This document shows, one piece after another, positions 3,742-48,897 of a DNA stretch of 64,000 nucleotides (position 1 is the stretch's first letter; every line of letters begins with the position of its first letter). The notes under the pieces were generated by a model that saw only the letters and a program-made list of their open reading frames with translations, searched no databases and was not told the DNA's origin. The stretch spans positions 2,089-66,088 of the forward strand of contig CAZKVI010000003.1 in the NCBI GenBank assembly GCA_964556185.1. Direction: 5' to 3'. The DNA comes from an uncultured Methanosarcinales archaeon. GTDB lineage: Archaea > Nanobdellota > Nanobdellia > Woesearchaeales > DSVV01. A program made the position numbers and the translations under genes.

Positions 3742-6700
3742 CTAAACCTTCTCACAACTTATCAAAACTTCCATCTTTTTAATCTTCTCTTTAGAACAAT
3801 CTTGTAATGTGTCTGCTTCAACACCAACAAAGATCTCAACAGCCCCACATTTGTCTTTAATATCATCTTGCCATTTGATTAACATATCAACATATGATTG
3901 AGTACTCTGCAAATGCAATTTAATATTATCTTTTTTCTCCAATCCTAACTTTTTCCTAAATGCTTGAACTCTTCGCATGACTTCTCTGGAATAACCTTCT
4001 GCATCTAAGTCAGGAGTTCTTGTTTTATCTAAAAACAATTGTCCATGTCTATATTCTGCTTCAACTAAGTTCTCAGGCAGTTCTTTCTCAATAATAAAGT
4101 GCTCTTTTTTCAAACTTACTTTATGTCCATCTAAAACAACAGTATGTGCACCTTTTTCAACATCTGCCAAGATTTTCTCGTCAGCAACTTGTATTAATCT
4201 AGTAATTATTTTAGGAACTAATTCACCATATTCTTGACCAATTGTTCTATGGTTTGGTTTCATTTTTATCTTAACTTCAGTACACTTATCAACTAATTCA
4301 ATATGTTTGACATTTGTTTGTTTTTTAATAGTTTCATCTAACTTAGTAATAGATTCAATAGTATCATTATCAGTAACTACAATCCTAATTTTACCAACAG
4401 GCCATCTTACTCCTAGTTGTGCTCTTTCACGAGCAGCTAAAATACTTTGAATTGTATCTTTTGCAATAGAAAACTCTTTTTCTAAAGAGTTATCAATAAA
4501 CTTTGCATCAAATTTAGGCCAATCAAACAAATGAATACTCTCAACCTCAAGATCAAAGTACTCTTTCAAATCTTGATACATTCTCTCAGCTATAAATGGA
4601 GAAACAATTGCAAACATTTTCAAATTCTCTAAAAATGTTTCAAATATAACATTAAATACAACTTGTTTTTGTTCTTCCAACCCAAGAGCTGCTTTCTCAC
4701 GAACCAATTGAATATATGTTCTTGATAATTCCATAAATATTTCTTCAACTTTCAAAGGAACTTCATTTATCTTATAACTATCCATTAATTCTGTTATTTC
4801 TTTAATACCAGAATGTAATTTTGAAATCATATACTCTTCTTCTTGTTCTAAACAATTCTTATCAATTCCAGTGAATTTCAAACCATTATTCTTAGCTAAA
4901 TCAATTATAAACTTGTGCAGATTCCAATACACACCTAAATTCTTATATTTTAATTTACAGTCATCAAAATTATAATTAATATCAATTCCAGGATTAGCTC
5001 CACCAATCATATAATATCTTAATGTGTCTGCTCCGTATTTATCAACAACTTCTTGAGGTAAAATATAATTACCAAGAGATTTACTCATCTTACGTCCCTG
5101 TGAATCTTGTACAAAACCATGCATGTAAACATTTCTAAAAGAAGGTTTTTCCATGCTTACCATAGAAGCAACATGTAATAAATTAAACCAACCTCTAATT
5201 TGATCTTTTCCTTCTAAAATAAAATCAGGTGGAAACAAATTCTTAAAATTCTCTTCTTTATGTGGATAATCCAAACAAATCCATGAAGTACAACCAGCAT
5301 CTACCCAAACATCTAAAATATCTGGAATTCTTTTTTTAACACCACCACAATCACATTTGATTGTTACTTCATCAATCCAAGGTTTATGTAATTTCTCTAC
5401 TTTTTGTCCTGATAACTTTTCTAATTCAGCAACATCACCGACGACAATATAATTATCACACTCTTCACATCTCCATACTGGTACTGGTGTTCCCCAGAAT
5501 CTTTGTTTTGTAATAGAATTGTCTCTTAAGTTTTCTAACCATGAATTAAAAGCATTATAAGCAGCTTGAGGTACCCATTTAATTTTATTATTCTCTTCAA
5601 TTAACTTTTCTTTCATATCATCTACTTTAAAGAACCATTGTTTTGTAGTTTTATAGACAACAGCTTCATGACATCTCCAACAATGTGCATAACTATGATT
5701 AGTTTTACTTTGTGCAATTAAAGTGCCATTCTCATCCATTAGTTCAACAAATTTCTTATCATCTTTCTTAGCAACTAAACCAGAGAACTTTGAATCATCC
5801 TTTGGATATGTGCCATTTTCATCAATAAGATTAAATGGTTTAATACCTTTTCTTACACATAATTCATAATCAGAATCCCCGCAACCAGGTGCAAAATGCA
5901 CTAAACCAGTACCATCATCTAAATGTACATATTCATCTGATAATAAAACTGTATAAATCTTATCTTGTGTTTTTCTTGCTTCTTTAATTTGAGGAAATGA
6001 ATTTTCAAAAGAAGGAATATATTCTTTGCCTTCTAATTTCTTTCCTTTGAATTCTTCAACAATTTCATAATCTTTTCCTGCTTTTAATTTAATAACTTCT
6101 TCTGCAAGGTCTTTTGCAACAATCCAATGTTCATCACCAACTTTACATTTAACATATTCAAAATCAGGATGTACAACAACTGCTAGATTAAAAGGAATTG
6201 TCCATGGAGTTGTTGTCCAAATGATTAAATAATCATTTTCAGTTCCTCTTAATTTAAATCTTAAATAAATAGAATCATCAGTAATATCTTGGTATTCTAA
6301 TTCATGCTTTGCTAATGCTGTTGCACACGAAGCACACCAAGTCATTGCTCTTTCTCCTTCATACAATCTTTTATTTTCATGTGCTTTTTTAATTAACCAC
6401 CATTCTCCTTCAATAAATTCTTTTGAAATAGGTTGGTAAGCATTTTCAAAGCCCATCCATACACCTAATCTAGTAAAATCCTTATTCATTACATGCATAT
6501 TTTCTATAGATAGTTTTTTACATTCTTCAATAAACTTAGCAACACCAAACTTCTTGATTCCTTCTTTTCCATTAATTCCTAGTTTCTTTTCAACTGCATG
6601 CGCTGTAGGTAATCCATGCATATCATAGCCAGCTCTATCCCAAACATTGAAACCAGCCATTCTTTTATATCTAAGAACCATATCTTTTAGTGATTTGTTC

Positions 6701-8769: not shown

Positions 8770-8852
8770 TTCTTTAGTTAATTATCAATTGTTATTAAGG
8801 TTTTGGGTAAATAAGCATAGTCTTATATACTACCACTAATTTCACATGAATT

Positions 8853-9290
8853 ATGGGAAGATTTGAAGGTTCAAGAGGCAGAAGTTCTGGCCGTGGAAGA
8901 GACTCAAGAAGAGGCGGTAGAAGCGGCAATAGAAGAGATTCTAGTTATAGTAGAGACTCTAGCAGAAGTAATTATGGCAGAAGAGACTCTGGCAGAAGTT
9001 CTTATGGTGGAAGATCTAGCAGAGGCAGAGATTCTGGACGAAGTTATGGTGGCAGAGGCAGTAGAAGAGATAGTAATGACATTGAAATGACCAAAGTTAT
9101 TTGTGCTTCTTGTAAAGAAGAATGCGAAATCCCATTCAAACCTAAAACAGACAAGCCAGTCTATTGCAGAGATTGTTATTCAAAAGAAGGCAATGGCAGA
9201 TCATCTGGCAGATCTAATAATTCTAGCAGAGACCTTGACCAAATCAACGAAAAACTCAACAAAATCATGAAAGCATTAAATGTTGAATAA
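8853..9290 (+). CDS. Arg/Ser/Gly-rich low-complexity protein with C-terminal CxxC...CxxC zinc ribbon
   Basis: RGRDSRRGGRSGNRRDSSYSRDSSRS repeats followed by CASCKEECEIPFKPKTDKPVYCRDCY. Confidence 0.5.
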   Translation: MGRFEGSRGRSSGRGRDSRRGGRSGNRRDSSYSRDSSRSNYGRRDSGRSSYGGRSSRGRDSGRSYGGRGSRRDSNDIEMTKVICASCKEECEIPFKPKTDKPVYCRDCYSKEGNGRSSGRSNNSSRDLDQINEKLNKIMKALNVE

Positions 9291-9339
9291 ACTCTTAGTT
9301 AGGTTTATATACTGTATTTGATTTCTCTAGTATAAAGAG

Positions 9340-10713
9340 GTGGTTTTATGGGTGCAAAAATTGAGTTTAATAATAGATCCAAACGCAGCAGAAGAATTTG
9401 ATTATCAATTAGATAGATCTCTAAGAGTTGATATTACTTATGATCTTGATCTTGGTCTTTCAGAAAATTTAGAAAGAAAAATAGCAGCAGTCGCTAGTTC
9501 AAGAGAAAGACCAGATATTATTTGTGGGCAAAGATCTTCTTTAATACAATTACCTGAACCTTCTACTATTTTCAAAGGCTTTGATTTACAAGCCATACAA
9601 GTAAAAGGACATTTCTTTAGACCAACAGAAGAAAGCCGTGTTATTCATAATCCACAAATGACTATTTACACAGGAAGAGGTCATCCTGAAGTAATTTGGC
9701 ATTTCGATGATAAAGGAACACTAATTCTTATTCCAAATCCTGATATTCCTTGTGGTGCAATGCTCTTAGAAAATGCAAAACTTGAATTTAGAGCAGCAAA
9801 AGAAATGATGGAAGTAGGTTTACCTGTTGTTTGTCCAATGGGTTATGGAAATTTTCCTGATTTAGGATTTAATGTATATGATTCTATAATGGCTGCAACT
9901 CCAGGCACACTAAGTGGGTTTGCTATACAAGCTGGAGCATATGGTGATTTGGCAGCTATTAATAGAAGACAAGAAGTTGGATTTATGGTTTATGGAATTT
10001 ACACACCTGATAATTGTCGTTGTTTTGAAAGTGTTCTCAATGTAACTTCTGAATTAGATAAATCAAATAAAAGATTATTTTTAGCTGATTTCTTTAGAGC
10101 TTATGGAGCAGCACTAAGACAATTTCATGATAAAGGTTATATTCATGGGTCTCCTAATTTAGATAATCTTTCTCTTGTACCAGTTAGTGAAGCTAGACGA
10201 GGAATGAAATTACCAAATAAATTACAAACATTTTCTGTGTATGAAATTGTTTTCCATGATCTAACAGGAGACCTTGGAACTATTACGAGAAGAAAAGATG
10301 TTTCAAAAGAAAAATGGTTAAGTCATGTTATTTGGGATTTATCAGTTACAACAGGATTGTTATCTAATTTTTATTTTACACCAGAACGATGGGATATGGT
10401 TTATGGACATGATGGAGAAGCCCGTAGAAATATAATTAGAAGAAACCAAAGAATTGCTGAATTAACACAAGAAGTAGGTTATAATCCTGGTCCTGCTTTT
10501 TTTAAAGGATATTTAGGTGAAGATTTTCATAAACTTCCATCAGATTATTTTGAACATGATGGCAGTATGCTTATGCCATGCGATATAAGAACAAGAATAA
10601 CAATACCTTTACAATTAGCCATGAACAGAGGAGAAAAACCACAAGTAAACATCCCAGAATTCTGCAAAACAGAACCTTTAATGAATGTTGTTAGAAATGT
10701 TTATATGCAGTAA
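9340..10713 (+). CDS. hypothetical protein with kinase-like motif (possible pseudokinase); GTG start, true start uncertain
   Basis: GYIHGSPNLDNLSL resembles the HGDLHPGN catalytic loop with Asp replaced by Ser. Lys-poor composition. Confidence 0.35.
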   Translation: MVLWVQKLSLIIDPNAAEEFDYQLDRSLRVDITYDLDLGLSENLERKIAAVASSRERPDIICGQRSSLIQLPEPSTIFKGFDLQAIQVKGHFFRPTEESRVIHNPQMTIYTGRGHPEVIWHFDDKGTLILIPNPDIPCGAMLLENAKLEFRAAKEMMEVGLPVVCPMGYGNFPDLGFNVYDSIMAATPGTLSGFAIQAGAYGDLAAINRRQEVGFMVYGIYTPDNCRCFESVLNVTSELDKSNKRLFLADFFRAYGAALRQFHDKGYIHGSPNLDNLSLVPVSEARRGMKLPNKLQTFSVYEIVFHDLTGDLGTITRRKDVSKEKWLSHVIWDLSVTTGLLSNFYFTPERWDMVYGHDGEARRNIIRRNQRIAELTQEVGYNPGPAFFKGYLGEDFHKLPSDYFEHDGSMLMPCDIRTRITIPLQLAMNRGEKPQVNIPEFCKTEPLMNVVRNVYMQ

Positions 10714-29236: not shown

Positions 29237-29356
29237 CGGGCCCACGGGGATTCGAACCCCGGGCCTATGGCTGTCTGTGCGTAAGCAAAGACCCAGTGGA
29301 TCTTTGATCCTAACGCGTAAGAGGCCACCGCTCTAACCAGGCTGAGCTATGAGCCC
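29237..29356 (-). tRNA. tRNA-Lys(CUU) with about 45-nt intron after position 37
   Basis: Manual fold: GGGCTCA/TGGGCCC acceptor, GCTC/GAGC D-stem, GTGGC/GCCAT anticodon stem, loop CU-CUU-A, T-arm CGGGG-TTCGAAT-CCCCG, discriminator G. Confidence 0.7.
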
Positions 29357-48649: not shown

Positions 48650-48763
48650 CGCTGTGGCCCGGATTTGAACCGGGATATCCCGGAGGAAACAAGCTAAACA
48701 GTGCATGCCTTGAAAATACATACATTTCCAGGCTTGCGCAGTACCAGGTTGTGCCACCACAGC
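48650..48763 (-). tRNA. tRNA-Ser(GGA) with about 30-nt anticodon-loop intron and long variable arm
   Basis: Acceptor GCTGTGG/CCACAGC, anticodon stem CAAGC/GCTTG, loop CU-GGA-A, T-arm CCCGG-TTCAAAT-CCGGG, discriminator G. Confidence 0.55.
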
Positions 48764-48772
48764 AAAAAAAGG

Positions 48773-48897
48773 TGGCAGTGGCGGGATCTGAACCCGCGGC
48801 TTCTAGATCGCCCAGATATAAAGTTTAATCATCGGCATGAGCCTCATCACTCAAATCTTATGAGTCTAGCACTCTAACCAGGCTGAGTTACACTGCC
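48773..48897 (-). tRNA. tRNA-Met/Ile2(CAU), elongator type, with 50-nt intron
   Basis: Acceptor GGCAGTG/CACTGCC, D-stem ACTC/GAGT, anticodon stem CTAGA/TCTAG, loop CU-CAU-AA, T-arm GCGGG-TTCAGAT-CCCGC. Intron contains GUGAUGA. Confidence 0.7.

Follow-up and report, generated by a model that had tools for sequence, protein, structure and literature searches.

The closest described proteins belong to a catalogued family with a small four-Cys domain, entered as TIGR04272 ('cxxc_cxxc_Mbark', NCBIfam) and PF23477 ('zf_Tbcl_2, probable treble clef zinc finger'), and many of them have already been named 'CxxC-x17-CxxC domain-containing protein' by NCBI and JGI. Two such proteins from Methanosarcina mazei, A00184 and A01980, have been purified and found by ICP-MS to bind zinc; the group of small proteins that includes them ranked among the detections of highest confidence in proteomics, and a transcriptional role was proposed for these proteins from a Cys spacing common to TFIIB-family ribbons (PMC12704099). 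This was the only paper on the domain in the library searched; our literature search on the family entries, and on RGG proteins in DPANN archaea, otherwise returned nothing specific.

Proteins with RGG/RG motifs are a motif class and not a homologous family; one criterion of the class is, for example, three RG dipeptides spaced by 0–4 residues in a disordered region. Cold-shock proteins and DEAD-box helicases are canonical RNA chaperones. Plant CSPs, Lin28, and CNBP act as RNA chaperones with an OB-fold cold-shock domain, Gly/Arg-rich spacers, and small zinc modules, and DEAD-box RNA helicases, e.g., those of the bacterial RhlE type, carry basic Arg/Gly-rich C-terminal tails. SR proteins join an RS domain to an RRM. 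The FET proteins (FUS/EWS/TAF15) are arranged as RGG, RanBP2-type Cys4 finger, and RGG, and RGG/RG tails, including the RGG/RG regions of the FET proteins, bind RNA with degenerate specificity (PMC5570134).

The DNA analyzed here, referred to as the window, is a stretch of 64,000 nucleotides, archaeal, with a GC content of 31%. The gene under study (8853–9290, + strand) starts with ATG at 8853, stops with TAA at 9288–9290, and is a complete CDS for a CxxC-x17-CxxC domain protein of 145 aa with a pI of 10.3. For comparison, 80 homologous loci were fetched from species-level genomes labeled Woesearchaeota, Nanoarchaeota, or with placeholder names, and 69 of these were analyzable. The initial annotation had described a low-complexity Arg-rich tract, a Cys4 zinc domain, and a helical tail in one ORF; this arrangement is real, the frame being open in 69 of the 69 loci.

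The protein begins with a conserved short motif, MGRFEGSR (8853–8876; family consensus MARFERSR), in which F4 and S7 are at least 90% conserved. Residues 1–77 (8853–9083) constitute an Arg/Ser/Gly/Asp tract containing 22 R, 20 S, 17 G, 7 D, and 4 Y (at 32, 41, 51, and 65) and no K, with a net charge of +14. Intrinsic disorder, which the initial annotation had proposed to check, was borne out by composition and by the AlphaFold2 model, in which residues 1–75 have a pLDDT below 50. The richness in R, S, and G is far beyond chance: the best 60-aa stretch of the tract is 82% R+S+G, the next among the 77 ORFs of the window reaches 40%, and the background frequencies used were 4.7% (R), 5.4% (S), and 5.9% (G). 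Dipeptide counts in residues 1–77 were 5 RG, 11 GR, 6 RS, and 6 SR, with 6 RDS and only one strict RGG. RG dipeptides at 8, 14, and 20 are separated by 4-residue spacers within the predicted disordered region, the pattern of clustered RG/RGG repeats. The earlier label 'RS/RGG' thus holds for its RS/SR and RG/GR repeats and not for strict RGG, and 'RS/RG-like mixed-charge' describes the tract better than 'RGG box'. A 30-nt tandem repeat (8952–9014, + strand; 2.1 copies, 84% match) encodes the 10-aa units RDSSRSNYGR and RDSGRSSYGG and accounts for the placement of the four Tyr residues, indicating that the tract grows by repeat slippage.

The Cys4 zinc domain spans residues 78–112 (9084–9188), with predicted zinc ligands C84xxC87-x17-C105xxC108 (9102–9176). 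These residues matched TIGR04272 with 59.5 bits (cutoff, 36) and PF23477 with 58.2 bits (cutoff, 27); in the Pfam search of the 145-aa protein at E ≤ 1, nothing besides PF23477 and a weak DUF7245 match was found. The protein has both the 2-17-2 Cys spacing and the core E-[VI]-P-F-[KR]-P ... K-P-[VI]-[YF]-C, corresponding to EVPFKP...KPVYCxxCF of the family, and 68 sequences all keep E92, P94, F95, P97, K101, and P102. It is therefore a true member of TIGR04272/PF23477, and the gene adds one member to a catalogued family; the more novel part is the family-level hypothesis developed below. The entry covers a 37-residue domain only, whereas the window protein has a three-part architecture (MARFERSR motif with Arg-rich disordered tail, zinc domain, and INEKLNKIMKAL helix), a description of which was not found in the literature search. 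Judged from its sequence, the domain is a putative zinc binder through its four Cys residues. M. mazei A00184 and A01980, described as small proteins, resemble the window protein in domain name and Cys spacing, the comparison being by description only.

In the AlphaFold2 model, the domain consists of a hairpin (80–83/90–93) and a helix (106–114) with pLDDT values of 74–85; the two CxxC motifs are brought together, and the second sits at the start of the helix. In a treble clef, one ligand pair sits on a zinc knuckle within a β-hairpin and the other at the N-terminal end of a helix. The model suggests this arrangement and not the two hairpins of a classical ribbon; the CxxC-x17-CxxC pattern behind the earlier term 'zinc ribbon' is present and the ribbon fold itself is not what is predicted. 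A search of PDB sequences with the family profile gave chance matches only (E ≥ 0.88), and fold searches gave no significant match, the weak Foldseek matches including eS27 (E about 5–6). The fold bears on whether the protein is a transcription factor or an RNA-polymerase accessory with a TFIIB/TFIIS-like zinc ribbon, as the suggestion made for the M. mazei proteins from Cys spacing would have it (PMC12704099), and one homologue from Patescibacteria does adjoin greA. However, Pfam gave no match to a TFIIB or TFIIS ribbon, the model suggests a helix-capped treble clef, with a helix following the second CxxC, and transcription genes did not recur among the neighbors in 160 loci; we consider such a role highly improbable.

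Downstream of the zinc domain, a flexible S/N/G/R-rich linker (residues 113–125, 9189–9227; pLDDT below 50), which differs in length between homologues, leads to a conserved amphipathic C-terminal helix, RDLDQINEKLNKIMKALNVE (residues 126–145, 9228–9287; modeled as helix over 126–141). Its heptad core L128/I131/L135/I138/L142 has 3-4-3-4 spacing, and no variation was seen among 68 sequences at I131, K134, K137, I138, and L142. The helix is likely an element for self-association or partner binding. In three metagenome loci (L109, L148, and L165), a helix resembling the INEKLDKI C-terminal helix, DIAGLINKMQEQLVSLEKKIDIL, was observed N-terminal to the low-complexity region and ribbon, and on account of this placement the helix looks like a movable module.

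The same DNA is present in the public JGI contig Ga0118720_1000645, where it is annotated differently, as a 67-aa ribbon-only protein starting at Met79 plus a 75-aa ORF in another frame (8863–9090, + strand; 5777–6004 of L001). The latter is Glu/Ala/Val-rich, derives from the AGA/GAA-rich repeat, and was judged spurious. If the JGI call were right, the only product would be the 67-aa protein, and the upstream frame would be untranslated or part of ORF 8863–9090; besides the call itself, the high conservation of Met79 favors this. Comparison of the 69 loci argues strongly against it. The long frame upstream of the ribbon is without a stop in all 69, over 40–112 codons, whereas the JGI alternative frame is open in only 5 and contains 102 stop codons in total; the N-terminus of the long ORF carries a MARFERSR-like motif conserved across the 69 loci; and a TATA box lies 30 nt upstream of its ATG, with none upstream of Met79. 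Met79 itself lies within the Pfam match, which starts at residue 78, and the equivalent Met is kept in the internal ribbons of multi-ribbon relatives. On frame openness, the conserved N-terminus, and TATA placement, the alternative-frame ORF and the Met79 start were rejected; the JGI version is extremely improbable, and with Met79 inside the domain the 145-aa protein is taken as the product and the public split as an annotation error. Since 5 of the 13 nearest database proteins are likewise ribbon-only calls, truncation at the internal Met together with a spurious alternative-frame call may be systematic across the family. Such calls hide the disordered domain in public protein sets.

The promoter (8816–8830, + strand) comprises a BRE-like CATAG followed by the TATA box TTATATA (8823–8829), which starts at −30 from the ATG. 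In 63 of the 69 loci a TATA box begins 28–32 nt upstream of the long-ORF ATG, with the consensus cATAnCCTTATATAC, and TTATATA is often preceded by CATAnCC in these loci. No Shine-Dalgarno sequence was found upstream of the long-ORF ATG in the window gene or in the 69 loci. The distance from the TATA box to the transcription start is approximately 26–27 nt in archaea. Taken together, this geometry and the lack of a Shine-Dalgarno sequence predict a leaderless mRNA with transcription starting at the ATG. A TATA box at about −30 also marks about 15 other first genes in the window. The 15-mer 8816–8830 was considered as a repeated element and rejected, as its exact sequence is found at a single place in the window. 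In many loci (L005–L084), a further conserved element, ATTTCTAA-like, was observed at about −14 to −7, downstream of the TATA box and ahead of the ATG; the window has ATTTCAC at this position.

A search of a library of 50%-identity representatives with the family profile returned 5,866 proteins at E ≤ 1e-3, of which 2,647 were at E ≤ 1e-10, and a word-indexed search returned 3,928. Three classes were distinguished. They included 1) proteins of about 120 aa from DPANN archaea (Woesearchaeota/Nanoarchaeota), with a MARFERSR start, an R/S/D/G-rich tail, one ribbon, and a C-terminal INEKLNKIMKALKIE helix; 2) proteins of about 220 aa, whose named examples are Patescibacteria, with two or three ribbons joined by R/G-rich linkers, a similar helix, usually a Lys-rich tail, and a MGNFNR start in place of the archaeal MARFERSR; and 3) short forms of about 55 aa. 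A disordered Arg-rich N-terminus is present in nearly all relatives, across classes. In the viral collection, the single match was a 43-aa short-form ribbon protein, MNFDLEMHKAVCSECGKECEVPFKP..., at 3992–4123 of a 109-kb IMG/VR contig (L170); the family is essentially absent from viral contigs, and no link to viruses was found.

Among the 69 archaeal homologues, all have a tract of similar composition, 40–112 aa long, with a pooled composition of R 26%, S 16%, G 12%, D 9%, K 6%, E 6%, and F 5%. The window protein ranks first among them in Ser, fourth in Gly, and third in Tyr content and has almost no K, E, or F, which places it at the 'RS/RG-like' end of a wider mixed-charge continuum. The initial annotation called such tracts rare in archaea, a view that does not hold for this clade, given the 69 Woesearchaeota/Nanoarchaeota homologues and the thousands of relatives. 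The proposed search for ribbon homologues likewise showed the tract to be family-wide and not a lineage-specific expansion, in a family that is not a known DNA-binding family. Arg-rich disordered tails on zinc modules are thus common in these prokaryotes and not restricted to eukaryotes.

'Eukaryote-like', as the protein had been called, can stand as an analogy only, since no RRM, RanBP2-type, or CCHC domain was found (Pfam, E ≤ 1). By sequence, the window protein is an analogue of eukaryotic RGG proteins and not a homologue; with the defining domains all absent, it is not related to SR, FET, or CCHC-knuckle proteins, nor to TFIIB/TFIIS-ribbon or ribosomal zinc-ribbon proteins. With the FET proteins it shares Arg/Gly-rich disorder beside a small Cys4 finger and spaced Tyr residues, but the RanBP2-type finger is C-x2-C-x10-C-x2-C as opposed to the 17-residue spacing here, and the tract, with its one RGG, is richer in Ser and Asp. 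The likeness to SR proteins consists of 12 RS/SR dipeptides in 77 residues, which are interleaved with G, D, and Y and do not form long RS runs; no RRM was matched at E ≤ 1, and archaea are not known to have an SR-protein kinase system.

In the window, the gene is flanked by a divergent gene for a radical-SAM/B12-binding-domain protein and, downstream, by a 457-aa ORF and a GFO_IDH_MocA oxidoreductase gene, followed by L1, P0, and P1. The initial annotation was therefore correct in placing it upstream of L1-P0-P1 with two intervening genes. The 457-aa ORF (9340–10713, + strand) had no Pfam match, was conserved only in very close relatives (L002–L004), and apparently has its own TATA box at about 9305–9311. 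In all-against-all clustering of ORFs from the 80 loci, no neighbor exceeded 11 loci, and the window neighbors did not recur. Proximity to L1-P0-P1 was thus rejected as meaningful, because the neighborhood is not conserved in the 80 loci, and as a hint it is uninformative.

This result weighs on the possibility that the protein is ribosome-associated, either as a lineage-specific ribosomal protein or as a hibernation or assembly factor, like zinc-ribbon ribosomal proteins or RG-rich Stm1/SERBP1. A small, basic, putative zinc-binding protein with a strong promoter would suit such a role, the gene lies 2.6 kb upstream of L1-P0-P1, L15e is a neighbor in 4 of the 80 loci, and eS27 is among the weak Foldseek matches. 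Nevertheless, 3 of the 4 L15e cases are from near-identical genomes and no ribosomal-protein cluster recurs, no ribosomal-protein Pfam entry (e.g., one for a zinc-ribbon protein such as eS27) was matched at E ≤ 1, and a tail of 40–112 aa evolving by repeats would be unusual for a stoichiometric ribosomal protein. Association with the ribosome is accordingly regarded as quite unlikely.

Genes for RNA remodeling, on the other hand, recurred near the family. Among the 80 genome loci, DEAD-box genes (Pfam DEAD + Helicase_C) were found in 11 and cold-shock-domain genes (Pfam CSD) in 6; in a second, independent collection of 80 loci from metagenomes (383 kb), the counts were 4 and 10, respectively. 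When the 160 loci were pooled, 13 of the 16 CSD genes and 10 of the 15 DEAD-box genes were within 700 bp of the ribbon gene, a zone that makes up 18.6% of the flanking bases (binomial p = 1e-7 and 6e-5, respectively, with kinship handled only by clustering at 70% identity). The density near the ribbon gene was about 19-fold higher than that farther away for CSD genes and 9-fold for DEAD-box genes. At 70% identity, the 23 adjacent cases fell into 17 clusters, located on both sides and in both orientations and involving one-ribbon, two-ribbon, and short forms, which suggests that the association arose or was kept repeatedly. Because most adjacent cold-shock genes are encoded on the other strand, the association does not imply co-transcription. 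Neither type of gene was present in 130 of the 160 loci, and the window itself has no cold-shock or DEAD-box gene near 8853–9290. The contexts in Patescibacteria, from three look-ups, were heterogeneous (NYN and acetyltransferase genes; ABC transporters; greA).

The adjacent DEAD-box helicases often have R/S/G/Y-rich C-terminal tails (L076, L162, L030, and L038; e.g., ...GRRGGRSSGRRSYGGKSSGRRSSSGRDRR...) that closely resemble the N-terminal tract of the window protein in composition, those of L076 and L162 being near-identical R/S/G/Y tracts. In contrast to these helicases, the window protein bears its tract as a separate small protein lacking an ATPase domain. An RNA link of the kind originally proposed is therefore plausible from the CSD/DEAD-box adjacency and the helicase tails, and the part of the proposal that leaned on the ribosomal operon is unsupported. 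As a parallel to plant CSPs, Lin28, and CNBP, 13 of the 160 loci have a cold-shock domain encoded by a neighboring gene, and in SSB-type relatives an OB fold is fused directly. The zinc module is of another family (no zf-CCHC match) and the window has no adjacent cold-shock gene, so that the comparison is one of analogy only. By that analogy, the protein may work like eukaryotic RNA chaperones that pair RGG tracts with zinc fingers or cold-shock domains with zinc knuckles.

Domain fusions provided a further link to nucleic acids. About 20 of the top 120 homologues of an SSB carry, in one protein, an SSB-type OB fold, an RGG-like linker, and a CxxC-x17-CxxC domain; most homologues of that SSB (about 150 aa) are without the extra zinc domain. 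The SSB-type fusions (L121, 4650–5234; proteins P0277–P0331) were observed to have a single OB fold with the zinc domain C-terminal, and the named relatives are Bathyarchaeota and the 'miscellaneous Crenarchaeota group'. These fusions, in some sources annotated 'replication factor A1', would also be expected of a DNA-binding nucleoid or chromatin protein or a single-stranded-DNA accessory, in which the basic tail and zinc domain coat or bridge DNA. The high pI and the Lys/Ala-rich, histone-H1-like tails that end the Patescibacteria relatives point the same way; the SSB fusion and these tails fit DNA binding as well as they fit RNA binding. However, the recurrent neighbors are RNA-remodeling genes of the cold-shock-domain and DEAD-box types, with no such recurrence of replication or repair genes; archaeal one-ribbon proteins, the window protein among them, are without the Lys-rich tail; and RNA helicases bear the same type of tract. 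Such a role on DNA appears unlikely, though it deserves some weight.

A different fusion was found in L125 (4974–5771), where one protein contains the zinc domain, PKPVVE repeated eight times, and a complete GrpE domain (129.5 bits), tying the zinc module to heat-shock chaperone machinery in at least one lineage. This fusion, and the fact that the recurrent neighbors are classic temperature-shock genes, could be taken to mean that the protein is a stress-response adaptor or a protein-chaperone cofactor, that the zinc domain is a protein-protein module, and that the cold-shock, DEAD-box, and GrpE links reflect temperature-stress co-regulation and not common RNA substrates. We find this very doubtful, as the GrpE fusion was seen only once, and nucleic acid is indicated by the Arg-rich tail and by the links to SSB and helicases.

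From the CSD/DEAD-box adjacency, the SSB fusions, the similar helicase tails, and the binding behavior of RGG/RG tails, we infer RNA or single-strand nucleic-acid binding or a chaperone role. Specifically, the protein is proposed to be a small basic nucleic-acid binder, most likely of single-stranded or structured RNA, serving as an RNA chaperone or tether, a proposal to which we give about an even chance. Its own consensus TATA promoter would produce a leaderless monocistronic mRNA translated from 8853, and the protein is probably abundant. The 77-residue Arg-rich disordered tail would bind RNA through multivalent electrostatic and aromatic contacts that are degenerate in sequence, in the manner of RGG/RG tails, and the Cys4 zinc domain would offer a small rigid surface for an RNA or protein partner. 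Self-association or partner docking through the C-terminal heptad helix could then multiply valency, and Patescibacteria relatives may reach an equal valency by tandem duplication of the zinc domain. The analysis itself established the gene structure, reading frame, promoter geometry, family membership, family-wide architecture, and neighbor statistics; RNA binding, chaperone activity, oligomerization, and abundance are all inferred. The protein would share a process with cold-shock-domain proteins and DEAD-box RNA helicases. For the family, this amounts to a concrete and testable hypothesis, i.e., chaperoning of RNA or single-strand nucleic acid together with these two kinds of protein. The family is very large and spread across DPANN archaea and Patescibacteria, whose minimal genomes are expected to retain mostly genes that matter.

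A bolder extension, which at present seems doubtful, is that this pervasive family of ultra-small DPANN archaea and CPR/Patescibacteria, with at least 5,800 clusters at 50% identity, is the prokaryotic functional counterpart of the eukaryotic RGG-zinc-finger proteins. Its members would be multivalent, Arg-rich disordered scaffolds bearing a zinc domain and an oligomerizing helix. These would form condensates with RNA and, acting in trans with cold-shock proteins and DEAD-box helicases, make up a minimal RNA-chaperone/RNA-granule system.

Several other features of the window and of related genomes were observed. Many metagenome-assembled genomes labeled 'uncultured Methanosarcinales archaeon' (binchicken; L007, L016, L018, L021, L023, and others) carry the Woesearchaeota-type gene and promoter, and the taxon label on these genomes is probably a placeholder or an error. 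P0 (12588–13892) is 434 aa long and has an acidic, E/K/A/P-rich C-terminal extension of about 150 residues ending in ...KPADES, apparently without the common C-terminal stalk motif, and P1 (13901–14245) ends in the usual AAGLGALFG stalk peptide. Three tRNA genes on the − strand (29237–29356, 48650–48763, and 48773–48897) are 114–125 nt long, compared with 71 positions in the model, which indicates that they contain introns and fits an archaeal origin.
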